The notes beneath the pieces are model-generated. The model had not been told where the DNA came from, did not search any database, and worked only from the letters and a program-made list of their open reading frames with translations. A stretch of 64,000 bases of DNA from an uncultured Alistipes sp. (GTDB lineage Bacteria > Bacteroidota > Bacteroidia > Bacteroidales > Rikenellaceae), in NCBI GenBank assembly GCA_944320625.1, contig CALUIG010000002.1, positions 3,803-67,802 on the forward strand. The letters run 5' to 3'. Below are positions 10,137 to 52,829 of this stretch, piece after piece. A program made the position numbers and the translations under genes. The first letter of the stretch is position 1; every line of letters starts with the position of its first letter.

Positions 10137-10985
10137 TTACTTGCGGCTTTTCAAAAAGCACTCGATCGTATTCTCCATCAGGCAGCAGATCGTCATCGGA
10201 CCGACACCGCCCGGCACCGGCGTGATGACCGAGGCCTTGGGCTCGATGGCCGCAAAATCAACGTCACCGCACAGTTTGCCCGTCTCCGGGTCGCGGTTCA
10301 CACCCACGTCGATCACCACGGCACCCTCGGAGACCATATCGGCCGTCACGAATTTCGGGCGTCCGATGGCCACGACCAGAATCTCCGCGCCACGGGTCAC
10401 CTCCGCCAAGTTGCGCGTACGGCTGTGGGCCATCGTCACCGTGGCATTCGCATCCAGCAGCAGCTTCGAGACCGGAAGTCCCACGATATTGCTGCGTCCG
10501 ATCACCACGGCACGTTTCCCGGCGATCTCCACCCCGGCGGCCGTCAGCATCTTGAGGATCCCCTTCGGCGTGCAGGGCAGCGTGCAGGGCTGTTTCTGCC
10601 ACAAAGCCGCCACATTCAGCGGATGGAATCCATCCACATCCTTCGCCTTGTCGATCGCCTCGATCACCTTGCTCTCGTCGATGTGCTTCGGCAGAGGCAG
10701 CTGCACCAGAATCCCGTCCACCTCCGGATCGGCATTCAGTTCGGCGATCAGTCCCAGCAACTCCTCCTCCGAGATCGACTCCGGACGGCGGATCGTCGTA
10801 TTGCGGATTCCGACCTCGGCCGAGGCCTTCGCCTTGCCCGTCACATAACTCACACTGGCCGGGTTCTCACCCACGAGGATCACGACCAGATGGGGCACAC
10901 GCCCGTACTTCGCAGGAAAGCCCTTCACCTGCTCCGCCATTTCGGCCTTCAACCGGGCCGACAATTCCTTTCCGCTGATTATCAT
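10137..10985 (-). CDS. folD: Methylenetetrahydrofolate dehydrogenase/cyclohydrolase
   Basis: DGILVQLPLP, KDVDGFHP, PCTPKGI, GRSNIVG, TPVPGGVGPMT. Confidence 0.97.
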   Translation of the reverse strand: MIISGKELSARLKAEMAEQVKGFPAKYGRVPHLVVILVGENPASVSYVTGKAKASAEVGIRNTTIRRPESISEEELLGLIAELNADPEVDGILVQLPLPKHIDESKVIEAIDKAKDVDGFHPLNVAALWQKQPCTLPCTPKGILKMLTAAGVEIAGKRAVVIGRSNIVGLPVSKLLLDANATVTMAHSRTRNLAEVTRGAEILVVAIGRPKFVTADMVSEGAVVIDVGVNRDPETGKLCGDVDFAAIEPKASVITPVPGGVGPMTICCLMENTIECFLKSRK

Positions 10986-10996
10986 TCTCCTATTCG

Positions 10997-12250
10997 TTAT
11001 TTATCAAAAGCCCAATGTCCAATGTCCGTACGGTGGAAGAGGTTGTCGCAACCGATGCGCTCCACATCGCGCAACGCCGCAGCACGCGCCTCGGCCAGAT
11101 CACGACCCCGCCCCACGACGAACAGCACACGGCCTCCGGCCGTCAGAATACGGTCGCCGTCGGCCTTTGTACCCATGTGGTAGACCGTTCCCGCGACGTT
11201 TTCGAGTCCTGTGATCTCGTGCCCCTTTTCGTAGCTGCCCGGGTATCCCTTCGATGCCAGGACGATGCCCAGAGCGGCAAAATCGTGCCACTCCAACCGC
11301 GTGTCACGTCCCTCGGCCACGGCGCAGAAAATATCGACGATGTCACTCTTCAACCGCGGCAGTACCACCTCCGTCTCGGGATCGCCGAAGCGGGCGTTGA
11401 ACTCGATGACCTTGATACCCTGCGCCGTCTTCATCAGACCGCCGTACAGCACCCCTTCGAAGGGGCACCCTTCGGCAACCATCGCGTCGGCCACCGGCTG
11501 CAGGATGTGTTCCAAGGCGTAGCGCTCATCCTCGGCCGTAATGAACGGCAGCGGGGAGTAGGCCCCCATGCCACCCGTATTGGGACCCTTGTCGCCATCG
11601 TAGGCACGCTTGTGGTCCTGGGCCAGTACCATCGGCCAGACACGGTGCCCCGAGACGAAGCACATGAACGAGAACTCCGGGCCTTCGAGGTAATCCTCGA
11701 CGACGACCTTGCCTTCTCCGAACTTGTCGTCGAGCAGCATGTCCTTCAGGGCCGCATCGGCCTCCTCCATCGTCTGAGCGATCACCACGCCCTTCCCGGC
11801 CGCCAGTCCATCGTACTTCAGCACCGCCGGGAAAGGACGCCCGGCCACGTAGTCCCGGGCCGCGGCATACTCCGTGAAGGCGCGGAATCCGGCCGTCGGA
11901 ATGCCGTATCGGGCCATCAGCTCCTTGGCGAACTCCTTCGACGACTCGATGCGTGCCGCCGCCTTCGTGGGGCCGAAAATCCGCAGTCCCGCGGCCTTGA
12001 AACAATCGGCCACGCCGGCCGCGAGGGCCACTTCGGGCCCCACGACCGTCAGACTGATGCCCTGCTCTGCGGCAAAATCGCGCAGGCGCTCCACCTCGGT
12101 CTCCCGGATGGGCACACACTCGGCCTGTCGCGCGATTCCCGCATTGCCGGGGGCACAGTAAATCTTCTCCACCTGCGGCGAACGCGCAAGTGCATCGACA
12201 ATGGCGTGTTCGCGGCCTCCGCCGCCGATTACAAGCACTTTCATAGCCAT
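10997..12250 (-). CDS. purD: Phosphoribosylamine--glycine ligase
   Basis: VIGGGGREHA, APGNAG, QDHKRAYDGDKGPNTGGMG, EFNARFGDPE. Start could be 12244. Confidence 0.97.
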   Translation of the reverse strand: MAMKVLVIGGGGREHAIVDALARSPQVEKIYCAPGNAGIARQAECVPIRETEVERLRDFAAEQGISLTVVGPEVALAAGVADCFKAAGLRIFGPTKAAARIESSKEFAKELMARYGIPTAGFRAFTEYAAARDYVAGRPFPAVLKYDGLAAGKGVVIAQTMEEADAALKDMLLDDKFGEGKVVVEDYLEGPEFSFMCFVSGHRVWPMVLAQDHKRAYDGDKGPNTGGMGAYSPLPFITAEDERYALEHILQPVADAMVAEGCPFEGVLYGGLMKTAQGIKVIEFNARFGDPETEVVLPRLKSDIVDIFCAVAEGRDTRLEWHDFAALGIVLASKGYPGSYEKGHEITGLENVAGTVYHMGTKADGDRILTAGGRVLFVVGRGRDLAEARAAALRDVERIGCDNLFHRTDIGHWAFDK

Positions 12251-12265
12251 TCGCGTTTTCGTGGA

Positions 12266-13795
12266 TCAGTGTTTGAAATGGCGCTCGCCGGTGAAACACA
12301 TGGCAATGCCCTTCTCGTCGGCCTTACGGATCGAATCCTCGTCACGCACCGAACCGCCCGGCTGCACGATGGCCGTCACACCGTACTCGGCAGCCAGCGC
12401 CACACAGTCGTCGAAGGGGAAGAAACCGTCCGAAGCCAGGACGATACCCTCCGTCACACCGGCAGCCCGGGCCTGATTCAGGGCCAGTTCGGCCGAACCG
12501 ATGCGGTTCATCTGCCCGGCGCCGACTCCTAACGTGCGACCGTCCTTCACGGCCACGATGGCATTCGACTTCACGTGCTTGACGATTCTCCAGCCGAAGT
12601 TCAGGTCGTCCATCTGCTCCGCAGCGGGCTGCGCCTTCGTAACGCACATTTCGGGCGTCACCTCTTTCGTCGCCACGTCGAGGTCCTGCACCAGCAGACC
12701 GCCGTTGACGCTCACATACTGTTTCGGATCCACGGAGCCCTTCGTCATGTCGACCTCCAGCAACCGCAGATTCTTCTTCGTGCAAAGCACCTCCAGAGCC
12801 CCTTCGTCGAACTTCGGGGCCATGATGATCTCCAGGAAGATGGGCTTCATCAACTCGGCCGCCTCACGCGTCACGGTGCAGTTCGTGGCGACAATCCCGC
12901 CGAAGATCGAGACCTTGTCAGCCTCGTAGGCCTTGGTCCACGCCTCGACGACATCCTTGCCCTCGGCCGCCCCGCAGGGATTCATGTGCTTCAGTCCGAC
13001 GCAGAACGGACGGTCGAACTCCCGCACGATGCACAATGCGGCATTGGCATCCTGGATGTTGTTGTACGAGAGTTCCTTGCCGTTCAACTGGCGGGCGAAG
13101 GCCAGCGAATAGGGCACCTTGTGCTCCTCGCGGTAGAACTTCGCCGACTGGTGCGGGTTCTCGCCGTAGCGCAGCGGCTGCACGAGGTCGAACTCCAGGA
13201 AGAGTTTCTCGTTCAGGCCGGCCTGGGCACGCATGTAGGTGGCGATCATCGCGTCGTACTCTGCCGTATGGGTATAGGCCTTGGCCGAGAGTTTCAACCG
13301 CGTCGTCTTTTCCGTATTGCCGCCCTTGCCGATCTCGTCGAGGATCTGCGCATAGTCCGCCGGGTCGCATACCACCGTTACGTCGGCCCAGTTCTTCGCC
13401 GCCGAACGCAGCATCGAGGGGCCGCCGATGTCGATATTCTCGATGGCATCCTCCATCTTCACGTCGGGTTTCGCAATCGTCTGACGGAACGGATAGAGGT
13501 TCACGCACACCAGGTCGATGAACTCGATACCGTTCTCCTTGAGCGCCTTCAGATGCTCGGGATCGTCACGGCGTGCCAGCAGTCCGCCGTGGACCTTCGG
13601 GTGAAGGGTCTTGACCCGCCCGTCGCAGATCTCCGGAAAGCCCGTCACGTCGCTGATGTTCAACACCTCGACGCCGCTTTCACGCAGCAGTTTCATCGTG
13701 CCGCCCGTGGCGATCACCTCCCAACCGAGAGCCCGGAGCCCCTTGGCGAACTCCACGACACCCGTCTTGTCACTTACGCTGATCAATGCTCGCAT
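12266..13795 (-). CDS. purH: Bifunctional AICAR transformylase/IMP cyclohydrolase
   Basis: RALISVSDKTG, GRVKTLHP, ENIDIGGP, LRYGENPHQ, ASDGFFPF, RHFKH. Confidence 0.97.
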   Translation of the reverse strand: MRALISVSDKTGVVEFAKGLRALGWEVIATGGTMKLLRESGVEVLNISDVTGFPEICDGRVKTLHPKVHGGLLARRDDPEHLKALKENGIEFIDLVCVNLYPFRQTIAKPDVKMEDAIENIDIGGPSMLRSAAKNWADVTVVCDPADYAQILDEIGKGGNTEKTTRLKLSAKAYTHTAEYDAMIATYMRAQAGLNEKLFLEFDLVQPLRYGENPHQSAKFYREEHKVPYSLAFARQLNGKELSYNNIQDANAALCIVREFDRPFCVGLKHMNPCGAAEGKDVVEAWTKAYEADKVSIFGGIVATNCTVTREAAELMKPIFLEIIMAPKFDEGALEVLCTKKNLRLLEVDMTKGSVDPKQYVSVNGGLLVQDLDVATKEVTPEMCVTKAQPAAEQMDDLNFGWRIVKHVKSNAIVAVKDGRTLGVGAGQMNRIGSAELALNQARAAGVTEGIVLASDGFFPFDDCVALAAEYGVTAIVQPGGSVRDEDSIRKADEKGIAMCFTGERHFKH

Positions 13796-13808
13796 ATTCG
13801 TCTCTTCT

Positions 13809-14384
13809 TTATTTTGTTTGTTTTTCGTTCAACAATTTTCCGATCGTCTCGACATAAAGCGGGTACTCCACCGCATGAATCATCGGTTCCAGCTCCGCGA
13901 TGTCGTGTCCCTCGTAAGGGAATGCCCGCTGGGCAATGATCCGCCCGCCGTCGAGTTCGGCATCGACGTAATGGATCGTCACACCGAAGACCTTCACACC
14001 ATACTCCAGGGCCTGTTCGATGGCATGCGCCCCGCGGAAGGCCGGCAGCAGCGACGGGTGGATGTTGATGATCCGCCCCGCATAGGCCGCAAGCAGTTCC
14101 TCGCCGATGATCCGCATGTAGCCGGCCAGACAGACCAGTTCGACCCCGGCGGCACCCAGCCGTGCGATGATCTCGCGTTCGTAGTCGGCCTTCGAGGCGT
14201 ACTCCTTCGGTGCGAAGGCGAAAGTCTCGACCCCATGCCGGGCCGCACGTTCGATCACCCGGGCCCCGGGCCTGTCGCAGACCATCAACACAACCTCCGC
14301 GGGCAGATCGCCCCGCTCGCAGGCCGTCACGATGGCCTCGAAATTCGTGCCGCTGCCGCTGGCAAAGACTGCAAGGCGGTGCAT
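13809..14384 (-). CDS. purN: Phosphoribosylglycinamide formyltransferase
   Basis: Start MHRLAVFASGSGTN; LAGYMRI, INIHPSLLPAF, HYVDAELDGG. Confidence 0.96.
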   Translation of the reverse strand: MHRLAVFASGSGTNFEAIVTACERGDLPAEVVLMVCDRPGARVIERAARHGVETFAFAPKEYASKADYEREIIARLGAAGVELVCLAGYMRIIGEELLAAYAGRIINIHPSLLPAFRGAHAIEQALEYGVKVFGVTIHYVDAELDGGRIIAQRAFPYEGHDIAELEPMIHAVEYPLYVETIGKLLNEKQTK

Positions 14385-14388
14385 GGCC

Positions 14389-15414
14389 CTATCGGATAAC
14401 GACACTCCCGGTGTCCGTGACACGTCCGATGACCGAAGCCCGTTCGCCCTGGGCCGTCAGGATCTCGATGGCCTTCGGAGCCTCCGCGGCGTCCAGCGCG
14501 ATGACCATGCCGATTCCCATGTTGAAGATGTTGAACATCTCGCGGTGCGCCACCTTGCCGTACTTCTCCAGGAAACGGAACACCGGCAGGATCTCCCACG
14601 AGCCCTCCTCGATCTCCAGCCCCTGCCCTTCATGCAGGATGCGCGGGATATTCTCGTCAAAACCGCCGCCCGTGATGTGGCTGATGCCGTGGACGTCGCA
14701 CTGCCGAATCACCTCGAGGACCTGCTTCACGTAGATCTTCGTCGGCGTGAGCAGCACCTCACCCAGCAATTTGTTCGACAGTTCGGGATAGCTGCGGTGC
14801 AGATCGAAACAGTTGTCCGCAAGGATCTTGCGTACCAGGCTGAAGCCGTTCGAGTGGACGCCGCTCGACGCGATGCCCACCAGTACGTCACCCGTACGGA
14901 CCTTCGAGCCGTCGATCAGCTTCGACTTCTCGACCACACCGACCGTGAATCCGGCAATGTCATACTCCCCGTCGGCATACATGCCCGGCATCTCGGCCGT
15001 CTCGCCGCCCACCAGGGCGCAGCCTGCCTGCCGGCACCCCTCGGCGACACCTGCCACGATGGCCTCGATCTTCTGGGGTTCGTTGTGCCCCACGGCCACG
15101 TAGTCCAGGAACAGCAGCGGTTCGGCACCTTGGGCCAGGACATCGTTCACGCACATCGCCACGGCATCGATACCGATCGTGTCATGCTTGTCCATCTGGA
15201 AGGCCAGCTTGAGCTTCGTGCCCACGCCGTCCGTGCCGCTCACCAGCACCGGCTCCCGGACCTTCAGCGCCGCGAGGTCGAACATCCCGCCGAAAGCGCC
15301 GATATTGCCCATCACGCCCGTGCGGGCCGTCGAAGCCACGTGTTTCTTGATGCGTCGCACCACTTCGTAACCGGCTTCGAGGTTCACACCGGCCTTTTCA
15401 TAACTTTGAGCCAT
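14389..15414 (-). CDS. purM: Phosphoribosylformylglycinamidine cyclo-ligase (AIR synthetase)
   Basis: [45 protein letters not shown]. Confidence 0.97.
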
Positions 15415-15444
15415 AACTATTCAGGGTTTTTAAGATTCCTAACA

Positions 15445-16863
15445 CTATTTGTTGTCCTTGTTGGCCTCCTCCATCGACTGATACAGCGCCGTGGGATACG
15501 AACCCGTGAAGCAGGCCATGCACAACTCGCAGCGGTTGCCGGCCTTCAGCAGCGATTCCGCGGAGAGGAAGGCCAGCGAATCGGCTCCGATCTCCTGACG
15601 GACCCCCTCCACGTTCTTGCGCGCCGAGATCAGTTCGTCATAGGTCGACGTGTCGACACCGTAGAAGCAGGGTCCGATCATCGGAGGGCTGGCAATGCGC
15701 ACGTGCACTTCGGTGGCTCCGGCCTCCTTGAGCATCGTAACGATGCGCCGCGAGGTCGTGCCCCGCACGATCGAGTCGTCGACCAACACCACGCGCTTGC
15801 CCCGCACGATCGAACGCACGGCCGAAAGTTTCATCCGCACGCCCTTTTCACGCAACTCCTGCGTCGGCTGGATGAAGGTCCGCCCGATGTACTTGTTCTT
15901 GATCAGACCCATCTCATAGGGCAGGCCGCTCTCTTCGGCATAACCCATCGCGGCACTGAGGCTCGAATCCGGGACGCCGACCACGATGTCGGCCTCGGCC
16001 GGAGACTCCTGACACAACAGACGTCCCGACTCCTTGCGGTAGGCGTGGACGTTGCACCCCTCGATGTCGCTGTCCGGACGCGCAAAGTAGATGTACTCCA
16101 TCGAACACATCTCGTGACGCTTGTACATCGAGTAGTCGCGGCTGCGGAGACCCTGGTGATCGATGGTGACGATCTCGCCCGGCTCGACGTCGCGCACGAA
16201 CTCCGCACCCAGCACGTCGAAGGCGCACGTCTCGCTCGAAACGACCCAACCCTCGCCCAAACGACCGATCGACAGCGGACGCAGGCCATACTTGTCACGG
16301 CAGGCGTAGATCCGGTTGGCCGTCATGATCAGGAAGGCAAAAGCGCCCTCCAGCATGTTCAGCGCATCGATGATCGAGAAGATGCGCGGCCGGTCATGGA
16401 ACCGGGACTCCTTCTTGATCAGATGGGCCAGGATCTCGCTGTCGGAGGTCGACTGGAAGAGACTGCCCCGGTTTTCGAGATACTCGCGCAGCAACGCCGA
16501 ATTGACGATATTGCCGTTGTGGGCCATGGCGAAATCGCCCGTGTTGTGGCGGAACAGGAACGGCTGGATATTCTCCACACCGCCTCCCCCGGCCGTCGTA
16601 TAACGTACGTGGCCTATGGCCATCGAACCCTTCAACGTGGCGAGTTTCCCCTCGTCGAAGACCTCGGTCACCAGACCGCCGCCCTTGATACGGCGGAACG
16701 TACCCTTTTCATCCACCGAGACAATCCCGGCACCCTCCTGCCCGCGGTGTTGCAGCGCATGGAGACCGTAATAGGTGAGCGAAGCGGCATCCGGCACCCC
16801 GTAGATGCCGAAAACCCCGCACTCCTCATGCAACTCGCGGTCGCGGATCACTTCTTCCATCAT
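15445..16863 (-). CDS. purF: Amidophosphoribosyltransferase
   Basis: Propeptide plus EECGVFG, LQHRGQEGAG, GHVRY, VDDSIVRGTTS; Fe-S cysteines (PCFYG, CMAC). Confidence 0.97.
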   Translation of the reverse strand: MMEEVIRDRELHEECGVFGIYGVPDAASLTYYGLHALQHRGQEGAGIVSVDEKGTFRRIKGGGLVTEVFDEGKLATLKGSMAIGHVRYTTAGGGGVENIQPFLFRHNTGDFAMAHNGNIVNSALLREYLENRGSLFQSTSDSEILAHLIKKESRFHDRPRIFSIIDALNMLEGAFAFLIMTANRIYACRDKYGLRPLSIGRLGEGWVVSSETCAFDVLGAEFVRDVEPGEIVTIDHQGLRSRDYSMYKRHEMCSMEYIYFARPDSDIEGCNVHAYRKESGRLLCQESPAEADIVVGVPDSSLSAAMGYAEESGLPYEMGLIKNKYIGRTFIQPTQELREKGVRMKLSAVRSIVRGKRVVLVDDSIVRGTTSRRIVTMLKEAGATEVHVRIASPPMIGPCFYGVDTSTYDELISARKNVEGVRQEIGADSLAFLSAESLLKAGNRCELCMACFTGSYPTALYQSMEEANKDNK

Positions 16864-16864
16864 G

Positions 16865-17581
16865 TTATTCGGTAATTTTTCTCAAACGCTCCAGAATCTC
16901 CTCGTAAGCCTCGCGCACCCGGCCCAGGTCACGGCGGAAACGGTCCTTGTCGAGCCGCTCACCCGTGGTCATGTCCCACAGACGGCACGTGTCGGGCGAC
17001 ACCTCGTCGGCCAGCACGATCTCACCCTCCGGCGTCCGGCCGAACTCGATCTTGAAGTCCACCAGCGTGATGTTCATCCGCGCGAACAGCGACTTGAGGA
17101 TCTCGTTGATCCGCGTGGTCATGGCATAGATCCGGTCCAACTCCCCGTAGGTCACGAGCCCCAGCGCTACGGCATGGTGGTCGTTGATGAGCGGATCGCC
17201 CAGTTCATCCCGCTTGTAGCAGATGTCGATGATCGTGTTCGAGGGCTGCGTACCCTCCTCGATGCCCAGGCGCTGAGCCATCGAACCCGCAACGATGTTG
17301 CGGACGATGACCTCCAGCGGAATGATCGTCACCCGGCGGCATACCTGGTCGCGGTCATTGATCGTATCGATGTAGTGGGTCTTCACCCCGGCCTTCTCCA
17401 ACTCCCGGAAGAGGATCGTCGAGATGGCATTGTTCACCACCCCCTTGTTTTCGATCGTGGCCTTCTTGATGTTGTTGAACGCCGTGGCCGTATCCTTGTA
17501 GTGGATGATGATCTTCTCGGGATCATCCGTCCGGAAAACCTGCTTCGCCTTACCCTCGTAGAGCATTTCGAGCTGTTTCAT
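16865..17581 (-). CDS. purC: SAICAR synthetase
   Basis: [45 protein letters not shown]. Confidence 0.97.
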
Positions 17582-17614
17582 CTCTATTTTTCGCGTTTGA
17601 ATGATTCGGTTGTT

Positions 17615-20600
17615 CTATTTTTTCCGGAAATAGGCGACGGCATTCTCGAAGAGCGGCTGCCGCCTGTTGCCTGCAATGTTCTTGAATAGGTTCTCCTCCC
17701 AGCGCTCCGTGTGGCCCATCTTGCCGAGGATCTGACCGTTTTTCGAAACGATACCCTCGATGGCATAGGACGAACCGTTGGGGTTGAACGGTGCTTCGGC
17801 CGTGGGCCGGCCCTCGGCGTCGGCGTACTGGAAGGCCACCTGTCCCGCCTCGAACAGTTCGCGGGCCAGCTTTTCGCTCACCACGAACTTGCCTTCGCCG
17901 TGGCTGACGGCGATCGAGTGCAGGTCGCCGACATGGAACGACGACAACCACGGCGAGTTGGTCGAAGCCACGCGGGTCGTAACGATCTGCGAGATGTGGC
18001 GGTTGATGTCGTTGCGGAACAGCGTCGGGGACTCCTTCGTGACCATCCCCAGGCGTCCGTAGGGCAGCAGTCCCGACTTGACCAGCGCCTGAAAACCGTT
18101 GCAGATACCCAGGATCAGCCCCCCGCGGTCCAGCAGGGCGTGGATCTCCGCCATAATATCCTTGTTATTCAAGACATTGACAATGAATTTGGCACTTCCG
18201 TCGGGTTCGTCGCCCGAGGAGAAGCCGCCGCTCAGCACGAAGATATGGGCCCGGCGGATGTGCTCCTTCATCTCGGCGATCGAACGCAGGATGTCGTCGC
18301 CCGCGATGTTGCACAGCACGCTCATCTCCACTTCGGCTCCGGCCCGGCGGAACGCCTTGGCCGTGTCGTAGTCGCAGTTCGTGCCGGGGAAGACCGGAAT
18401 GTAGACCAGCGGGTGTTCGACCGCCTCGCCCGGATAGGTGAAGTGCTTTTCGGCTGGCTGCGAAGTCATTACCTCAGCCGAGTTCAAGCCCTTGTCCGGA
18501 TAGACGGCCGCAAAGCGCTCGGTATTGGCCCGGTACAATTCGTCGAGCGGCATCCGCACACCGCCGACCGTCACCGATTCGTCGGCTACCGTGAAGCCCA
18601 CAAGTTCCGCATCCGGATACTCCAGCGTCCCTTCGCACTCCACGAGGATCGAACCGTAGGCATAGTCGTAGAGTTTCGACTCCTCCATCGTGACCTCCAC
18701 GCCGATACCGTTTCCGAAGGCCATCTTCGCCACGCCTTCGGCCACGCCGCCGAAGCCCACGGACCACGCTGCGAGAATCTTCCCTTCGGCAATCCGGTCG
18801 CTCACGAACGTGAAGTTCCGCTTCAACTGCGCCGTATCGGGCATCCAGTTCTCACGCGGCGTGTGGCGCACGAGGTACAACCGGTGTCCGGCCCCCTTCA
18901 GGTCGGTCGAGATCACCCGCCGCGCATCGACCGTCGTAATGCCGAAGGCCATCAGCATCAGCGGCACGTTGATATGCTGGAACGTCCCCGACATCGAGTC
19001 CTTGCCGCCAATCGACGGAAGGCCCAGTTCGACCTGCATCTTCAAGGCTCCCAGTAGCGCACCCAGCGGTTTGCCCCACGATTCGGCATCCTTGGTCATG
19101 CGTTCGAAATACTCCTGGTAGGAGTAGCGCATCCGGTCGTAGCGCGCACCCGCAGCCACGACCTTCGCCGCAGCCTCCACCACGGCATAGGCCGCCCCGT
19201 GGTAGGGGCTCCACGATGCCACATAGGGGTTGTAGCCGAAGGCCATCACACTGGCCGTATCGGTATAGCCGTCCGTCGGGAGCTTCTGCACCGAAACCTG
19301 CGTCTCGCTGCGCTGCGTACGTCCGCCGAAGGGCATCAGCACCGTCGAGCGGCCGATCGTCGAGTCGAACATCTCGATCAGCCCCCGCTGCGAGACGACA
19401 TTATTGTCCTTTAGGTTGTTGGCAAAGCGTTCCACCGTCGTGGCGCCCTCGATCGTCCGTGCGAAGGGGTTGCGATTCTCCACTTCGCCGATCTTTGCCT
19501 CGGCGTAGTGCTTCGCACCCGCGCTGTCGATGAATTCGCGGCTCAGATCCACGACCTTCCGGGCACCGTTGAACATCCGCATCCGCCCCGTGTCCGTCAC
19601 GTCGGCCACGTGCACCGCCTCGATGTTCTCCTCGCGGCAGTAACCCATGAACTCCTCCATGTCCTTCGCCTCCACAACCACCGACATGCGCTCCTGCGAC
19701 TCGCTGATGGCCAGTTCCGTGGAGTTCAGACCGCTGTATTTCGTCTTCACCCGGTCGAGGTAGATGTCCAGGCCGTCGGCCAGCTCGCCGATCGCCACGC
19801 TGACACCGCCCGCACCGAAGTCGTTCGATTTCTTGATCAACCGGGTCACCTCCGGACGCCGGAACAGCCGTTCCAGTTTCCGCTCCTCGGGAGCGTTTCC
19901 CTTCTGCACCTCGCTGCCGCACGTCTCCAGCGACTTGGCGTCGTGCTCCTTCGACGAACCCGTCGCTCCGCCGATGCCGTCACGACCCGTCCGGCCGCCG
20001 AACATGATAATCCGGTCTCCCGGAGCCGGGCGCTCGCGCCGCACGTTCTCCGCCTTCACGGCTCCGACGACGGCGCCCACCTCCAGACGCTTGGCCACAT
20101 AGTCCTCGTGGTAGATTTCACGCACGTGCGTCGTAGCCAGGCCGATCTGGTTGCCGTAGCTCGAATAGCCCGCGGCGGCCTTCTTCGAGATGACGCTCTG
20201 CGGGAGTTTCCCGGCGAGGGTCTCCGAAACCGGCAGGTAGATGTTCCCGGCCCCTGTCACACGCATCGCCTGATAGACGTAACTGCGGCCCGACAGCGGG
20301 TCGCGGATCGCGCCGCCCAGGCAGGTCGAGGCCCCGCCGAAGGGTTCGATCTCCGTCGGATGGTTGTGCGTCTCGTTCTTGAACTGCAGGAGCCACGTCT
20401 CCGGCTTCCCGTCGACGTCGACCTCCACGTAGATCGAGCAGGCGTTGTTCTCCTCCGAGACCTCCAGGTCGTCCAACAACCCCTTCTGTTTCAGGTAGCG
20501 CGCCCCGATCGTCGCCATGTCCATCAGGCAGATGCTCTTGTGCTCGCGGCCCAGTTCGCGGCGGATCCGCAGGTAGAGCGCCAGCGAATCCTCGATCTCG

Positions 20601-21328
20601 CTCTTCACGAACGACTCCTCGACGGTGATGCCTTCGAGTTCGGTCGTGAAGGTCGTATGGCGGCAGTGGTCGCTCCAGTAGGTATCCAGGATGCGCAACT
20701 CCGTCTCGTAGGGATCGCGCCCCTCGGCCCGGAAGTATTTCACCACCTCATAGAGGTCGTCGGCATTCATCGCCAGGCCCATCCGCTTACAGTAAGGCTC
20801 CAGCTCGTCATCCGTCATCTCCCGAAAACCCTCCAGCACCTGAACGGGCTTTACCTCGGCCTGCTCCATGTCCGTCAGCACCGAGAGATCCTTTTCGCGC
20901 GACTCCACGGCATTGATATAGTAGTGGCGGATCCGGGCCAGCTCCTCCTCGGTCACGCTGTCATCAAAGAGCAGCAACTTCGCCGAGCGGATGTTCACCT
21001 GCGCCTCGGGGTCAATCAGCCGCACGCAGTCCACCGCCGAAGCGGCCCGCTGGTCGAACTGTCCGGGCAGGCACTCCACGGCGATATACTTGCGGCCCGC
21101 CAAGTCGCACGTGTCGCTCACCTCATCGGTCACCACCTCGCCGAAGACCGTGTAACGGCTCTTCTCCAGCAACTCCGCCGTAAAGCCGAACAGGTCATAG
21201 ACGTTCAGCAGGCGCAATTCGCGCAGCGAGAGGTTCAGGTTCGTGTTCAGTTCGCGCCGAAGGCTCTCCGCCTCCACCCGGAAGCGCGGCAGTTTCTCGA
21301 CGAAAATACGATAGTCGGTCGTGTTCAT
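17615..21328 (-). CDS. purL: Phosphoribosylformylglycinamidine synthase (large, fused form)
   Basis: YWSDHCRHTTF, KNETHNHPTEIEPFGGA, DFGAGG; C-terminal glutaminase FPGTNC, GICNGFQ, MGHTER. Confidence 0.97.
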   Translation of the reverse strand: MNTTDYRIFVEKLPRFRVEAESLRRELNTNLNLSLRELRLLNVYDLFGFTAELLEKSRYTVFGEVVTDEVSDTCDLAGRKYIAVECLPGQFDQRAASAVDCVRLIDPEAQVNIRSAKLLLFDDSVTEEELARIRHYYINAVESREKDLSVLTDMEQAEVKPVQVLEGFREMTDDELEPYCKRMGLAMNADDLYEVVKYFRAEGRDPYETELRILDTYWSDHCRHTTFTTELEGITVEESFVKSEIEDSLALYLRIRRELGREHKSICLMDMATIGARYLKQKGLLDDLEVSEENNACSIYVEVDVDGKPETWLLQFKNETHNHPTEIEPFGGASTCLGGAIRDPLSGRSYVYQAMRVTGAGNIYLPVSETLAGKLPQSVISKKAAAGYSSYGNQIGLATTHVREIYHEDYVAKRLEVGAVVGAVKAENVRRERPAPGDRIIMFGGRTGRDGIGGATGSSKEHDAKSLETCGSEVQKGNAPEERKLERLFRRPEVTRLIKKSNDFGAGGVSVAIGELADGLDIYLDRVKTKYSGLNSTELAISESQERMSVVVEAKDMEEFMGYCREENIEAVHVADVTDTGRMRMFNGARKVVDLSREFIDSAGAKHYAEAKIGEVENRNPFARTIEGATTVERFANNLKDNNVVSQRGLIEMFDSTIGRSTVLMPFGGRTQRSETQVSVQKLPTDGYTDTASVMAFGYNPYVASWSPYHGAAYAVVEAAAKVVAAGARYDRMRYSYQEYFERMTKDAESWGKPLGALLGALKMQVELGLPSIGGKDSMSGTFQHINVPLMLMAFGITTVDARRVISTDLKGAGHRLYLVRHTPRENWMPDTAQLKRNFTFVSDRIAEGKILAAWSVGFGGVAEGVAKMAFGNGIGVEVTMEESKLYDYAYGSILVECEGTLEYPDAELVGFTVADESVTVGGVRMPLDELYRANTERFAAVYPDKGLNSAEVMTSQPAEKHFTYPGEAVEHPLVYIPVFPGTNCDYDTAKAFRRAGAEVEMSVLCNIAGDDILRSIAEMKEHIRRAHIFVLSGGFSSGDEPDGSAKFIVNVLNNKDIMAEIHALLDRGGLILGICNGFQALVKSGLLPYGRLGMVTKESPTLFRNDINRHISQIVTTRVASTNSPWLSSFHVGDLHSIAVSHGEGKFVVSEKLARELFEAGQVAFQYADAEGRPTAEAPFNPNGSSYAIEGIVSKNGQILGKMGHTERWEENLFKNIAGNRRQPLFENAVAYFRKK

Positions 21329-21358
21329 TTATTGTTTTTGTTTGCTTTTGCTCTGTTC

Positions 21359-22468
21359 TTATTTCACGAAACGGTCGGACCACTCCCGCTCGTACGCCCC
21401 GCCCGTCATGCCGACGAAGGTGATGTGTCCCATCTTGCGTTTCGGGCGGCTTTCGCTCTTGCCGTAGATGTGGACGTAGGTGTTCGGATGCTCCTCCCGC
21501 GCCACGGCCCGGGCCGCTTCGAGGTCCTGCCCGAGGATGTTCTTCATCACCGTCGGAGCCACCAGCCGCGGCTCCTGCAACGGCTCGCCGATCAAATAGC
21601 GCACCAGTTCGCGGAACTGGTTGGTCGTACACCCCTCGATCGTATAGTGCCCCGAGTTGTGGGGGCGCGGCGCCATCTCGTTGAAGTAGATCTCTCCGCC
21701 CCGGATGAAGTACTCGATGGCCAGGATCCCTTCGTAGCCGCACTCGCGCATGAAGCCTTCGCTCTGTGCCTTCATCCGGTCGAGCACCTCCTGCGAGGCC
21801 GCCGCCGGAACGATCGAGAGGTCCAGAATGCCGTCGCGGTGGATATTCCGCCCCACGGGGAAGCTCACGACCCGTTCCCGGTCGGCCACCATCACGATAC
21901 TGGCCTCCGAGTCGAACGGAATGAACTCCTCCAGGATGCAGGGAACCGTCAGCAGCGGCAGTGCCCGTTCGATGTCGGCTTCGCTCTTCAGCACCAGCTG
22001 CCCGTGTCCGTCGTAGCCCAGCGTACGGGTCTTCAGCACCGCCGGAAGCCCCAGCTCGCGCACCGCGGCCCGCAGCGACGCTTCATCGTCCACGGCCGCA
22101 AAACCCGGAGTTTGCAGCCCGTGGTCGCGGGCATTCGACTTCTCGCGCAGGCGGTCCTGCGAATCGTAGAGCGGTTTATACCCCTGCGGGATGTTGTATT
22201 TTTCGCACAGCGGGATCAGGATCTCGCCCGGAACATTCTCGAATTCGTAGGTCACCACGTCGCACATGCCGCACAGCCGTTCGAGCGCCGCGGCATCGTC
22301 GTAAGCCGCCACGATATGATCGTCGCAGACCCGGAAGGCCGGAGCATCCGGCGCCGGATCGAGTGCCACGGCCCGCACGCCCAGGCCATGCGCCTGTTCG
22401 GCGATCATCAGCCCCAGCTGTCCCCCTCCGATAATTCCGATCGTCTTCATTTTTCCCGGATTTTCCAT
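21359..22468 (-). CDS. purK: N5-carboxyaminoimidazole ribonucleotide synthase
   Basis: IGIIGGGQLG, TYEFEN, GYDGHGQ, NEMAPRPHNSGH, RKMGH. Alternative starts at 22450 or 22477. Confidence 0.95.
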   Translation of the reverse strand: MENPGKMKTIGIIGGGQLGLMIAEQAHGLGVRAVALDPAPDAPAFRVCDDHIVAAYDDAAALERLCGMCDVVTYEFENVPGEILIPLCEKYNIPQGYKPLYDSQDRLREKSNARDHGLQTPGFAAVDDEASLRAAVRELGLPAVLKTRTLGYDGHGQLVLKSEADIERALPLLTVPCILEEFIPFDSEASIVMVADRERVVSFPVGRNIHRDGILDLSIVPAAASQEVLDRMKAQSEGFMRECGYEGILAIEYFIRGGEIYFNEMAPRPHNSGHYTIEGCTTNQFRELVRYLIGEPLQEPRLVAPTVMKNILGQDLEAARAVAREEHPNTYVHIYGKSESRPKRKMGHITFVGMTGGAYEREWSDRFVK

Positions 22469-22502
22469 ATGGTTCATCTCCTCACGAGCCTTGTGTTCCT
22501 CC

Positions 22503-22547
22503 ATTCCGGCTCCCGGACTCCTTATTCCGGCTCCCGGACTCCTTATT
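22503..22547. repeat. 21-bp tandem duplication (2 copies plus 3 nt) at the purE 3' end
   Basis: ATTCCGGCTCCCGGACTCCTT at 22503-22523 and 22524-22544, followed by ATT. Confidence 0.9.
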
Positions 22548-23019
22548 TCAATTCGGCTTTCAGGACGTCGGCAGTCTGCTTGGCGCGGAAGGCGTCGAGT
22601 TTCGCGGCCAGTGCCTCGTCCTGCAACGCCAGGATCGACACGGCGATCAGCGCGGCATTCTTGGCTCCGTTGATTGCGGTCGTGGCCACGGGAACACCCG
22701 CCGGCATCTGCACGATCGAAAGCAGCGAGTCCAGGCCGTTCAGGGCCCGCGACTTCACCGGAACGCCCACGACCGGCAGCGTCGTCATCGAAGCCACCAT
22801 ACCCGGAAGGTGGGCTGCACCGCCCGCGCCGGCAATGATTACGCCGATCCCGCGCTGTTTCGCGGTCTTGGCATATTCGCACAGCAGGTCCGGCGTACGG
22901 TGGGCGCTGACCACCCGTTTTTCAAACTCCACGCCGAACGATTCGAGCATCGTCACCGCGTCGGACATCACTTCGTAGTCGCTCACCGAGCCCATAATCA
23001 CGCCTACTTTCATAGCCAT
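22543..23019 (-). CDS. purE: N5-CAIR mutase
   Basis: [41 protein letters not shown]. Start 23019 or 23013. Confidence 0.97.
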
Positions 23020-23047: not shown

Positions 23048-23087
23048 AAAAAAACAGACCGCCACGACATCGCATGTCATGGCGGTC
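23048..23087 (-). terminator. Intrinsic terminator (attenuator) in the pur operon leader
   Basis: Minus strand GACCGCCATGACAT-gcg-ATGTCGTGGCGGTC-TG-T7, located between the promoter and purE. Confidence 0.85.
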
Positions 23088-23093
23088 CGGTAT

Positions 23094-23237
23094 CTATCCG
23101 AGAAGTCCGCAAGCCGACTGTCGTCGCACCAAGGAGCCGGTGCCACGCATCGACTGATACGCCGAAGAATAGAAGGCAGCGGCCTGGACCTGTTGCTGCT
23201 TCCGCTCGCGCCGGTCGATCGTGCAGAGTGAGTTCAT
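23094..23237 (-). CDS. Putative pur operon leader peptide (47 aa)
   Basis: Manual translation MNSLCTIDRRERKQQQVQAAAFYSSAYQSMRGTGSLVRRQSACGLLG*; starts 30 nt after the -7 element and stops 6 nt before the terminator stem. Confidence 0.55.
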   Translation of the reverse strand: MNSLCTIDRRERKQQQVQAAAFYSSAYQSMRGTGSLVRRQSACGLLG

Positions 23238-23267: not shown

Positions 23268-23298
23268 CAAAAGTAGCGCTTTTCGCCCTACTTTCAAA
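23268..23298 (-). promoter_or_regulatory. pur operon sigma-A promoter
   Basis: TTTG (23295-23298)-N19-TACTTTTG (23268-23275) on the minus strand. Confidence 0.8.
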
Positions 23299-23434: not shown

Positions 23435-24520
23435 CTATCGAGCCTTCGCCTCGCAGTAGGCACAGCGGCACGTCCCGTCGGGCATCCGGCGGAACAACCG
23501 GTCCACATCCTCCGTCGCCGAAATGCAGCGACGATTCGGACACTCCATCTCGTTGACGATATACTCCTCGCCGAAAACCGGCGTATGGGCAAACGGACGG
23601 TTTTCGTCAGCCCACCGCAGCAGCGTCAGAATCAAAGCCATACGCACGAACTTGCCGTTCTCCACCTGCCGGAAGTAGGCCGCACGAGGATCGTTGTCCA
23701 CCGCCCGCGTGATCTCGTTCACCCGCGGCAGCGGATGCAGGATCGTCATGTCCGCCTTCGCCGTACGCAGCTTCTCGGGATTCAGCACGAAACTGTTCTT
23801 CACCCGGTCGAACTCCTCCTCATCCAGGAAGCGCTCCTTCTGCACGCGCGTCATGTAGAGGATGTCCAGTTCGGGCATCACCTCCTCCATCGTGCGCACC
23901 TCCCGGAACGAAAGTTTCGAATTGGCCTGCATCTCCTGCAGCATGTAGTCCGGCAGACGCAGCTCCTCGGGCGAAATCAGAATCACCTCGATCCCCTCGT
24001 AGCGCGACAACGCCTTGATGAGCGAGTGCACCGTGCGGCCGAACTTCAAATCCCCGCAGAAACCGATCGTCATGTGGTCGAAACGCCCCTTCTCGCGCTT
24101 GATCGTCAAAAGGTCGGTCAGCGTCTGCGTCGGGTGCGAGTGGCTGCCGTCCCCAGCGTTGATCACCGGAACCCCGGCGTACTGCGACGCCACGAGCGGA
24201 GCTCCCTCCTTGAAGTGGCGCATGGCGATGATGTCCGCAAAACAGCGGATCACCCGAACCGTGTCGGCCACCGTCTCGCCCTTCGACACCGACGACGAAT
24301 TGGCGTCCGAAAAGCCGATCACCTGCCCACCCAGTTCGAGCATCGCCGACGTGAAGCTCAACCGCGTGCGCGTCGACGGCTCGTAGAAAAGCGTCGCCAG
24401 CTTCTTGCCCTTGCACGCCTCGCTGTACTTGGCCCGGTTGGCAATGATGTCTTCGGCCAGGGCCACGATCTGCTCGGTCTCCTGTACCGTCAGATCCGTC
24501 GGGTCTATCAGATGTCGCAT
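23435..24520 (-). CDS. pyrB: Aspartate carbamoyltransferase catalytic chain with fused C-terminal PyrI-like zinc domain
   Basis: Start MRHLIDP behind AAGGAGG; [23 protein letters not shown]; tail CPNRRCIS...CRCAYCE. Confidence 0.95.
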
Positions 24521-32311: not shown

Positions 32312-33598
32312 TTATCTGATTGTTTTCGTTGTCAGCGTATCGTAAACCGCGCGCCCGCCCACCACCGTGAGCACCGCACGCCCCTCGACCTCCCACCCGG
32401 CAAACGGCGTGGCGCGGCCTTTCGAAAGAAACTCCTCCGGATCGATTTTCCAACGCGCCCCGAGGTCCAGCACCGTGAAATCGGCCTCCTCACCCGCCTC
32501 GATTCCCCCTTCGAGGCCGAAGAGCCGACGCGGCGACGTCGACATCAGGTCGATCAGCCGCTCCAGCGGGATGATGCCGGATTTCACCAGCCCGGTATAA
32601 AGCAGCGGGAAGGCCGTCTCGATCCCCACGATGCCCATGGCACTCCCGGCCAGACCGCGCGACTTCTCCTCAGCCGTATGCGGGGCGTGGTCCGTAGCCA
32701 CGACCTCGATCGTGCCGTCGGCCACTCCGGCGATCAGCGCCTCGCGGTCGGCACGGCTCCGCAGCGGCGGGTTCATCTTGAAACGCCCCTCCTCCTGCAG
32801 ATCCTCGTCGCACAGCAGCAGGTAGTGCGGAGCCGTTTCGCAGCTCACGCGAAGCCCCCGCGCCTTCGCCTCGCGGACCAGTTCGACGCTCTCCTTCGTG
32901 GAGACGTGGCAGACGTGGTACTGGCAGCCGGTCCGAGCGGCCAGTTCGATGTCGCGTCCGACCTGCCGCCATTCGCTCTCCGACGAGATGCCCCTATGGC
33001 CGTGGGCATGGCAGTAGTCGCCGTCGTGGATATACCCTCCGCGGAGGAGTTCATCGACCTCGCAGTGTGCCACGATCGGCTTGCCGACCGCCGCGGCACG
33101 GCGCATCGCCTCCTCCATGAGTTCGGCCGACTGCACCCCGCGGCCGTCGTCCGAAAAGCCCGCGACATGGGGAGCCAGCGCCGCGAAGTCGGCCAGTTCG
33201 CCGCAGCCGCGCTGTCCCACGGTGATCGTGCCGTAGGGTTTCACCCGCACCACGGCATCGCGGCGGATGATCGACAACTGCGCTTCGAGATGTTCGGGAG
33301 AATCGGGAGCCGGATTCACGTTGGGCATCGAGCAGACCGTCGTATAACCGCCGCGAGCGGCCGCGGCCGTACCCGTAGCGATGGTCTCCTTCTGCGGAAA
33401 GCCCGGTTCGCGCAGGTGGACATGCACATCAACCAGTCCCGGGACCAGATACAGACCTCCGAGATCCACCCGCCGGTCTTCGGGCTGCGGTTCGCAATCG
33501 GCAACTACCCGGCCCGCCTCCACGACCAGACAACCCGGTTCGAAGCGGCCCCCGCGATAGATCGCAGCATTTTCGTAAAACGTCTTCATCGGCTCCAT
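32312..33598 (-). CDS. pyrC: Dihydroorotase
   Basis: PGLVDVHVHLREPG, MPN, HCE, CHVST, KMNPPLR, ATDHAPH. Start 33598 or 33589. Confidence 0.95.
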   Translation of the reverse strand: MEPMKTFYENAAIYRGGRFEPGCLVVEAGRVVADCEPQPEDRRVDLGGLYLVPGLVDVHVHLREPGFPQKETIATGTAAAARGGYTTVCSMPNVNPAPDSPEHLEAQLSIIRRDAVVRVKPYGTITVGQRGCGELADFAALAPHVAGFSDDGRGVQSAELMEEAMRRAAAVGKPIVAHCEVDELLRGGYIHDGDYCHAHGHRGISSESEWRQVGRDIELAARTGCQYHVCHVSTKESVELVREAKARGLRVSCETAPHYLLLCDEDLQEEGRFKMNPPLRSRADREALIAGVADGTIEVVATDHAPHTAEEKSRGLAGSAMGIVGIETAFPLLYTGLVKSGIIPLERLIDLMSTSPRRLFGLEGGIEAGEEADFTVLDLGARWKIDPEEFLSKGRATPFAGWEVEGRAVLTVVGGRAVYDTLTTKTIR

Positions 33599-33603
33599 CG
33601 CAT

Positions 33604-33635
33604 AAAAAAATAGGGCAACCGAAACAGTTACCCTA
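33604..33635 (-). terminator. Intrinsic terminator (attenuator) in the pyr operon leader
   Basis: Minus strand TAGGGTAACTG-ttt-CGGTTGCCCTA-T7, directly before pyrC. Confidence 0.85.
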
Positions 33636-33735
33636 ATAAAACAATAATACCGAATCCTGCCGAAGAGTGGGACCCCGACCAATAATCCTGCTGCCAGAAC
33701 TTCTGTGCCGTTGGGATGAGGGGGTTACAATTCAT
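33628..33735 (-). CDS. Putative pyr operon leader peptide (35 aa)
   Basis: Manual translation MNCNPLIPTAQKFWQQDYWSGSHSSAGFGIIVLLG*; the stop codon lies inside the 5' arm of the terminator. Confidence 0.6.
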   Translation of the reverse strand: MNCNPLIPTAQKFWQQDYWSGSHSSAGFGIIVLLG

Positions 33736-33761
33736 AGGATTCGGTCCGCTGTAATTGCTCA

Positions 33762-33793
33762 CAAAGATAGGGGTTTTTCGCCTCCCCTGCAAA
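33762..33793 (-). promoter_or_regulatory. pyr operon sigma-A promoter
   Basis: TTTG (33790-33793)-N20-TATCTTTG (33762-33769) on the minus strand. Confidence 0.8.
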
Positions 33794-42852: not shown

Positions 42853-42937
42853 TTGCCGGTCAATTTTTCACAAAGATAACCTTTTTTGCGCGAAACCTTA
42901 TGGCGTTCCGCGGAAAAAAGCGTACTTTTGTCGCGCC

Positions 42938-43108
42938 GCGGTTCCGAAAACACCCCGAAAACGGGTGTCGGGATTAAAAGGGAATGCCGTGAAAATCGGC
43001 AACAGTTCCCGCTGCTGTGAGTTGCAGACCGCGTTCCGGTACTCTTGGCCACTGTCCCCTTCCGGGACGGGAAGGCGCCGGAACGGCAACAAGTCAGAAG
43101 ACCTGCCC
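42938..43108 (+). ncRNA. Cobalamin riboswitch
   Basis: GGTT..AAAAGGGAATGCCGTGAAAATCGGCAACAGTTCCCGCTGCTGTGA..GCCACTG..GGGAAGGC..AAGTCAGAAGACCTGCC B12 box; TACTTTTG promoter element at 42923-42930. Boundaries approximate. Confidence 0.93.
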
Positions 43109-43224
43109 CGGCATTTCACTCTGGAAACCCTGCGGTGAATGGGGTCCGAAGCGAATCCGAATGCCTTTCGCAGATCTCCGCCCACCCGGTTCCCGGAGCA
43201 ACATCCGAAAACGGAAACGACGCG

Positions 43225-52280: not shown

Positions 52281-52477
52281 ACCGTCGGCAAAGGTAGGAA
52301 TTTTTCCCGGGATTCGCCACAGACCCGCCGGTTTTGTCCCGATTCGGGGTGCGGAATTCCGGAATCCGCCCTGCAGATCTCCCGAAGCGGGCTTCGCGGG
52401 GCTGTTCATAACTTGTTCATTAAAATTTCCCCCGAAAAGATTGCGCTTCTCCGAACTATCCCTATCTTTGTTCCCGA

Positions 52478-52643
52478 GCAAGGTTCCCAGCCGGCGGCTG
52501 CCGGCCCGGGATCAAAAGGGAACTCCTGTGCAAATCAGGGACTATGCCCGTAGCTGTAAGCTCCGAAAAAGGCTGCACACTCTCTGCCACTGTCCTGTGG
52601 GGACGGGAAGGCGTGCGGCGGGAGCGAGTCAGAAGACCTGCCT
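52478..52643 (+). ncRNA. Cobalamin riboswitch
   Basis: AGGTTCC..AAAAGGGAACTCCTGTGCAAATCAGGGACTATGCCCGTAGCTGTAA..GCCACTG..GGGAAGGC..GAGTCAGAAGACCTGCCT; TATCTTTG at 52463-52470. Boundaries approximate. Confidence 0.93.
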
Positions 52644-52829
52644 TGCCGAACCGGCCGAAACCCTCGGGATGTCAGGGCAACGCCGCAACTGTTTTTACTT
52701 TTTTTGAACATACGATCCCCGGTACGACGGCCTGTCGTACGACGTTCCGTGCACCCCCTTTGCGCCGTGCCGGAGCCGTTCGCCCGTCTGCCGGAACGAT
52801 TGTGCAAACCCTAAACTCATTGGACCATT

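Follow-up and report, generated by a model that had tools for sequence, protein, structure and literature searches.

In Escherichia coli, expression of pyrBI follows a logic of UTP-dependent coupling between RNA polymerase and the ribosome, as set out in the accessible sections of PMC5021804 and PMC3641672. In the same organism a stop codon placed a few bases from a terminator represses that terminator (PMC4824070, accessible text), and the pause in the E. coli pyrL leader is reported, in the available part of PMC9291695, to be not stabilised by NusA and unlikely to depend on a hairpin. For Bacteroides, transcription-translation coupling has been suggested, not shown (accessible part of PMC11685472). 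The literature that we searched, of which most subscription journals lay outside and other items were available in part, describes no leader attenuator of a pyr or pur operon in Alistipes or Bacteroidota, and the accessible main texts of PMC11109978, PMC2965389, PMC13323073 and PMC4833913 hold nothing on the element described below.

The window, by which we mean the whole stretch of 64,000 nucleotides from an uncultured Alistipes sp. that was analysed, carries on its minus strand a pyrimidine operon in the order pyrC-carA-carB-pyrK-pyrD-pyrF-pyrE-pyrB, which ends at 23435 (the gene that we take to be carB was named from its sequence). Among 80 named loci, the nearest PyrC relatives are those of Alistipes, at up to 85% identity. 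The parts of the leader in front of pyrC, and pyrC itself, are as follows.

33790 to 33793, minus strand: -33 box TTTG of a Bacteroidota-type promoter (sequence; by eye, a similar box in homologs)
33762 to 33769, minus strand: -7 box (TAnnTTTG), TATCTTTG (sequence)
33736 to 33745, minus strand: 5' arm of helix P1, directly before the leader AUG (exact complementarity, covariation)
33628 to 33735, minus strand: leader open reading frame (ORF) of 35 codons, with its TAA stop in the terminator 5' arm (sequence, conserved layout)
33686 to 33699, minus strand: internal hairpin P3, which holds most of the first GCAGGATT copy (weak covariation)
33649 to 33658, minus strand: 3' arm of helix P1, whose end is 14 nt short of the terminator G-C core (complementarity, covariation)
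33635 to 33648, minus strand: U-rich tract, predicted to be a UTP-sensitive pause region (base composition)
33604 to 33635, minus strand: intrinsic terminator, an 11-bp hairpin (33635-33611) and 7 U (sequence, folding)
32312 to 33589, minus strand: pyrC, the first gene of the operon (protein comparison)

The TTTG and TATCTTTG boxes were assigned by what we take to be the Bacteroidota promoter consensus, and transcription would start near 33756. Twelve public RNA runs, all in the form of contigs, were covered, and none of them contains half of the query words. One contig, from a related strain with 120 differences over 944 nt, has its end at 33744 and spans the terminator into pyrC, which is weak evidence; a contig from another run crosses the promoter, so that the RNA contigs support no conclusion. 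The first-pass annotation, made from the letters of the window, had described a promoter followed by a 35-codon ORF with U-rich last codons and a stop within the terminator 5' arm, and the sequence bears this out: in a genome of 59.5% GC, 11 of the 18 positions in the six codons preceding the final Gly are U, and the TAA lies 3 nt into the terminator G-C core, inside the 11-bp hairpin. The ORF has Ile at codon 7 (AUC) and Gln at codons 11, 15 and 16, and the leader is more stable than its shuffles (z -3.05; 2 of 200 as good). Elsewhere in the window, PyrB (23438-24514, minus strand) is extended at its C-terminus by a segment that weakly matches the ATCase regulatory subunit (E 4e-4), suggesting a putative fused PyrI zinc domain, and two cobalamin riboswitches lie on the plus strand at 42922-43124 and 52464-52659.

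The leader resembles E. coli pyrL in that a short ORF overlaps a U-rich stretch and an intrinsic terminator before pyrimidine genes, with no antiterminator. The two are nevertheless unlike in sequence, as a comparison of pyrL with 120 leaders gave no blastn match at E<=1; the leader peptide matched no NCBIfam family. The ORF of E. coli pyrL spans the whole terminator, with its stop 43 nt past the core, whereas the Alistipes stop lies in or just before the 5' arm, and the Alistipes leader, unlike pyrL, heads a whole eight-gene operon and contains a covarying helix in which the initiation region takes part. Around the Alistipes start, no more than two U follow one another, and reiterative initiation of the pyrBI type is therefore not predicted. 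With the PyrR attenuators of Firmicutes (RF00515) the leader shares the target operon, but it has a conserved ORF and lacks a PyrR site, the PyrR protein and an antiterminator. Attenuators of the trpL/hisL type have the same series of promoter, leader peptide and terminator, but they carry runs of cognate codons and stops well upstream, whereas the Alistipes pyr leader has no such runs and stops at the terminator. Classical amino-acid attenuators are turned on by stalling, while in the Alistipes pyr leader stalling would switch the operon off. Our best reading is that the leader is probably pyrL-like in action, as a UTP-sensing attenuator, while being unrelated in sequence to enterobacterial pyrL.

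To follow the layout across relatives, we matched PyrC in 147 of the 151 genomes of the genus and drew a sample of the best 30 of those loci, 40 more chosen by hand down the list and 80 named loci; after removal of duplicates and of one locus short of upstream sequence, the parsed set held 115 loci from outside Firmicutes and 24 on the Firmicutes side (one of them Actinomyces). A -7 box and a terminator occur together in 105 of the 115. The layout was scored as an AUG 5-60 nt after the TAnnTTTG box with a stop at -16 to +10 nt from the terminator G-C core, and it was present in 90 of the 105 parsable Bacteroidales/non-Firmicutes leaders against 9.2 expected by shuffling, counts that overstate independence because the loci are kin, mostly of one genus, and that carry a small bias because the shuffle null took the nearest promoter box only. 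None of the 24 Firmicutes-side loci has it. By eye, the 15 exceptions are mostly GUG starts, parser errors or ORFs that run through the terminator like pyrL. Several relatives place the stop 7-14 nt before the core or have an ORF through the terminator, and close relatives have a stop in two frames at the hairpin foot (TAG before the arm, or TAA/TAG within it). The pyr leaders form 30 clusters at about 62% identity with diverging peptides, and invariance in the alignment is limited to letters of the terminator, the AUG and a few isolated bases. Since the stop stays at the terminator while frame and peptide change, the position of the stop appears to outweigh the peptide, and the ORF-terminator layout is, judging from the counts against shuffles, under selection. 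The peptide code is probably not wholly irrelevant, since the dN/dS of the leader is 0.39 and the conservation of in-frame Gln and of early Ile/AUA codons exceeds what a leader free of sequence constraint would need.

The U tract is specific to the pyr leader. In the last 30 nt before the terminator, the U fraction of the window leader is 0.47, a value reached by 2 of 251 gene-end terminators of the genome (mean 0.20, from crude gene calls), and in the last 20 nt of pyr leaders it rises to 0.50-0.57. In all 25 genomes that have both leaders, the pyr leader exceeds the pur leader in U of the last 30 nt (means 0.47 vs 0.25), and the longest U run is above shuffles in 26 of 30 pyr clusters; E. 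coli pyrL gives 0.40 on the same U measure. We propose that, with ample UTP, RNA polymerase would cross the U tract ahead of the ribosome, so that the terminator hairpin forms and ends transcription at about 33604. When UTP is low, the polymerase would dwell in the U tract, and the ribosome could catch up and cover the terminator 5' arm, so that the operon is read. The leader is real and conserved, and we hold it very likely to be a ribosome-gated terminator; we consider it likely that UTP is sensed in one way or another, taking together all readings that include this. The specific reading as a ribosome-coupled attenuator like E. coli pyrL, in which we infer the UTP sensing, seems rather probable to us.

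A PyrR site was sought with Rfam, as the first-pass annotation had suggested. No match reached the gathering score in the leader, for PyrR or any other family, and the best sub-threshold match, at 20 of 43 bits, was between the terminator and an unrelated sRNA. The absence of pyrR that the annotation had noted for the window extends to the genome (86.6% complete), where neither the gene nor a PyrR RNA site was found, and none of 61 Alistipes genomes, three of them single-contig, has a PyrR protein over the cut-off of a model that scores a Firmicutes PyrR, the positive control, at 232 bits. With no covariance-model match and no PyrR protein, we ruled out a PyrR element. A search for a conserved antiterminator in the leaders found none (median z 0.37; z < -2 reached by 4 of the 90 pyr leaders and by 2 of the 30 pur leaders), and the terminator has a pair probability of at least 0.9 in 87 of 90 pyr leaders in the equilibrium ensemble.

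The nearest PyrC relatives outside Bacteroidota are from Clostridia. Directly upstream of the Clostridia-type loci, PyrR-site matches of 39.8-44.8 bits, below the gathering score of 54, were found in 5 of the 9 scanned, and one Clostridia-type relative locus has pyrR adjacent. With a cut-off of E <= 1e-100, this PyrC type was seen in 5 of 301 genomes from the order and in 9 of 81 from the family, and a promoter plus terminator was found in none of 30 Bacteroidaceae pyrB loci. Presence across the phylum was ruled out, and the element tracks one Clostridia-like pyr operon in Alistipes and a few other Bacteroidales. The earlier label of a pyrL-like attenuator in Bacteroidota therefore keeps its translation-coupled layout, its independence of PyrR and its dissimilarity to E. 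coli pyrL, but the group named was too wide. In a midpoint-rooted PyrC tree of 111 rows, built by a quick method, the rows that bear the leader cluster, as do those from Firmicutes (3 changes each). The PyrR-like sites of the Clostridia relatives and the scarcity of the PyrC type across order and family fit a lateral gain of the pyr operon with replacement of its control, in a direction that we infer and with a donor and a number of transfers that the tree does not fix. The same pyrC type with a leader of ORF, U tract and terminator is also seen in Porphyromonas canoris (L050), Bacteroidaceae (L085), Sangeribacter (L088), Paludibacteraceae (L100) and Cryptobacteroides (L065), and in two of these five scattered Bacteroidales leaders the ORF reads through, like pyrL. 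The data suggest that the pyr operon moves together with its leader. Among 30 order-wide pyrB loci inspected by eye, about 4 have a terminator-like leader end. The native pyrB of other Bacteroidales families (L142, L158, L161, L163, L165) has, also by eye, an apparent leader of its own that combines a short ORF with a terminator-like end.

We then examined the long-range helix to which the first-pass annotation had assigned an extra switching role. The sequence at 33745-33736 is, as it had stated, the exact complement of 33658-33649, and a perfect inverted repeat of at least 10 bp arises in 17 of 5000 leader shuffles. When the raw alignment was folded with RNAalifold, P3 and the terminator were recovered but P1 was not; by eye, indels move P1 out of register, and P1 was therefore tested alignment-free. 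In 32 non-redundant leaders of one close Alistipes clade, cognate P1 arms pair at -12.1 kcal/mol vs -7.7 kcal/mol for non-cognate arms, with the difference seen in 31 of the 32 leaders, none of 5000 permutations as good and three control pairings null. In 29 of the 32, a gap of 12-15 nt separates the P1 3' end from the terminator core downstream, so P1 would close only with the polymerase in the U tract. Once P1 has formed, the predicted unpairedness of the region from -10 to the AUG falls from about 0.6 to 0.09, and at one intermediate transcript length a value of 0.23 shows a transient earlier pairing in the window sequence. For P3, one pair is changed on both sides in 7 of 30 sequences and none of 5000 permutations is as good, but only 14 of 32 rows do better than the median. 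A middle helix, P2, was rejected as unsupported (18 of 32 rows; 480 of 5000 permutations).

The helix P1 is thus real, covaries and buries the start region once formed, but it did not hold up as an extra switch, since it does not compete with the terminator and is undetected in deeper lineages that keep the core of ORF, U tract and terminator; the deeper clusters give no consistent P1 signal, with only 13 of 86 leaders at z < -2. Both copies of GCAGGATT are present, beginning at 33691 and 33660, but the alternative pairing of the P1 5' arm with the first copy finds no comparative support (-5.3 kcal/mol for cognate and non-cognate arms alike, equalled in 2600 of 5000 permutations), and the first copy belongs to the local hairpin P3. 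As P1 can close only once the polymerase is at the U tract, it is likely an accessory that would close late and lengthen the U-tract pause and/or block re-initiation on the released leader RNA, rather than a chooser between two folds. With 77 nt between its arms, P1 differs from a canonical pause hairpin, and this loop together with the hairpin-independent pause reported for pyrL (available part of PMC9291695) weakens the pause role.

A second leader in the window, directly after pyrB and in front of the purine operon, has the same geometry.

23268 to 23275, minus strand: -7 box of the purine-operon promoter (sequence)
23094 to 23237, minus strand: sister leader ORF of 47 codons, 6 of them Gln, with a TAG 7 nt before the terminator core (sequence, layout)
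23048 to 23089, minus strand: intrinsic terminator of the purE leader, -27.3 kcal/mol (folding)
10137 to 23013, minus strand: purE-purK-purL-purC-purF-purM-purN-purH-purD-folD operon (protein comparison)

In a sample of 55 purE loci (the best 30 of 101 genomes, 20 taken by hand and 5 from other Bacteroidales), the pyr-type layout was present in 30 of the 42 parsable leaders against 1.8 expected, and a scan of the whole genome (2145 gene calls) returned nine such layouts, among which, by eye, the two in front of pyrC and purE stand out as cleanest. No shared sequence was detected between the pyr and pur leaders, and the purE leader shows no antiterminator or alternative fold and no enriched A, G or purine run. 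A purine tract mirroring the U tract was rejected, as 172 of 251 gene-end terminators are as purine-rich; purine runs exceed shuffles in only 7 of 19 pur clusters. Because the purE leader shares this geometry but lacks a special tract, the layout alone is no proof of NTP sensing. At sites fitting the pause consensus G(-10)Y(-1), the incoming nucleotide leans to G in 14 of 19 pur clusters and to U or C in 19 of 30 pyr clusters each, a weak tendency from eight tests. The lean to incoming G is the only hint, and a weak one, that the purE leader may sense GTP. A run of T 9-12 nt after the -7 box (window 23262-23255, minus strand) is seen in 10-13 of 19 purE clusters per position and may play a part in start-site choice or slippage. 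The mgtM leader of Salmonella mgtCBR, which according to the accessible text of PMC3641672 senses a purine NTP (ATP) by coupling and whose peptide is not conserved, is the precedent that we found for purine-NTP sensing of this kind, but it has conserved A residues and alternative stem-loops and is on at high ATP, and the purE leader is without these sequence features.

Glutamine is the most over-represented residue in both leader sets, at 7.3% of the 3098 pyr codons and 10.7% of the 1417 pur codons, compared with 1.8-3.5% in the other frames, an enrichment of about 3-fold over off-frame or shuffled codons. Gln is more frequent in frame than off frame in 27 of 30 pyr and 14 of 19 pur clusters vs 29% of 1406 chance small ORFs, and at least two Gln are present in 24 of 30 pyr and 17 of 19 pur representatives vs 18% of chance ORFs; ordinary N-termini have 3.2% Gln and the six amino-acid attenuator leaders of the genome 1.2%. 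Within clusters Gln is retained at 0.65 (pyr) and 0.62 (pur), Lys at 0.53 and 0.54 and Glu at 0.45 and 0.54, and 23-28% of the kept Gln pairs switch between CAA and CAG. The six apparent amino-acid attenuators (G000:C1, C38, C43, C48, C57, C73) have, by eye, runs of Trp, Cys, His, Met, Ile/Leu/Val and Phe/Tyr codons and stops 23-57 nt before the terminator. A 726-aa gene at G000:C99:2566-4746 (minus strand), which presumably resembles glutamine synthetase III, has a weak leader of short ORF plus hairpin. An ATA/CATA motif about 17 nt after the AUG (leader nt 11-32) lies in frame in 63 and off frame in 14 pyr leaders, in frame in 2 and off frame in 18 pur leaders, and it also occurs, by eye, in four of the six amino-acid leaders. 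It could be either an Ile at codon 7 or, given the out-of-frame triplets, a nucleotide motif such as a pause.

How far do these observations fit accounts other than a pyrL-like attenuator? A PyrR site, a novel riboswitch or another protein-binding RNA, with the ORF incidental, could account for a leader that is more structured than its shuffles and in which P1 and P3 covary, but the leader has no Rfam match, PyrR or antiterminator, its invariant bases are few and the ORF layout is about 10-fold above chance, making this reading very improbable. If instead P1 were the deciding switch, a ribosome would have to load before the P1 3' arm is made, or else P1 or a pairing of the first GCAGGATT copy would lock the start and lead to termination. 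The covariation of P1, the closing of the start region and the transient earlier pairing at one transcript length speak for such a role; P1 is complete 14 nt before the core, however, which would be too late for a new ribosome to cover ~30 codons, the alternative pairing does not covary and the deeper clusters have no consistent P1, so we think this reading improbable.

The likeness of the purE leader, which shares the geometry without a distinctive tract, would also be explained by a general meter of translation capacity or growth rate, in which slowed ribosomes lead to termination with no nucleotide specificity and an early rare AUA sets the lag. AUA occurs 71 times at codons 6-9 of 90 pyr leaders, against 55 of 811 genes of the ordinary kind, and it makes up 516 of 24155 codons for Ile, yet the window leader has AUC at codon 7, the triplet is off frame in the 14 pyr and 18 pur leaders mentioned above, and the U tract found in the pyr and not the pur leader of 25 of 25 genomes would be left unexplained; there is only a slight chance, in our view, that this is what the leader does. 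A two-input gate adds glutamine to UTP: low UTP plus fast passage of the ribosome over Gln codons would let the operon be read if pyrimidines are low and glutamine is available. Gln would be a permissive second input, since slow Gln decoding in this geometry would favour termination. CarA, PurL and PurF are glutamine-using amidotransferases; CarAB of the pyr operon consumes glutamine, and the purE leader, in front of purL and purF, would stand under the same Gln gate. Gln heads the enrichment in the two leader sets although these are unrelated, its codons switch synonymously while the residue is retained, and glnS is present in the genome. Against this, leaders of a sister genus (g2; L268, L269, L273, L274) and L065 have no Gln, the Gln codons are scattered, with QQ or QxQ in only 8 of 30 pyr representatives, the clusters share ancestry and the enrichment was found post hoc across all 20 residues, and E. 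coli pyrL has 2 Gln in 44 codons without any such claim. We regard the two-input gate as a tentative and rather unlikely addition, and keep to the pyrL-like attenuator as the preferred reading.

Taken alone, the pyr part would be a convergent copy of a textbook mechanism, while a specialist would not expect the purE leader that is paired with it, nor the Gln bias. Within the literature searched, with most subscription journals outside it, neither the purE leader nor the Gln bias is described, and no item, as far as its accessible text extends, joins 'glutamine codons' with 'leader peptide' and 'attenuation'. In a wider scenario, which we put forward with considerable doubt, Alistipes took in Clostridia-type pyr and pur operons, dropped PyrR and added matched, unrelated, ribosome-gated AND-gate terminators, in which the polymerase would read UTP (at the pyr U tract) or GTP (at elemental pauses of the pur leader) and the ribosome would read glutamine. 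If true, this would mean that a de novo purine operon is controlled by a leader-peptide attenuator and that codons for the nitrogen donor of the pathway serve as a permissive input. Alistipes is a common gut genus, and for the tuning of its nucleotide synthesis, where no PyrR was found, the leader offers a precise and testable answer; it also adds comparative support for transcription-translation coupling in this group.
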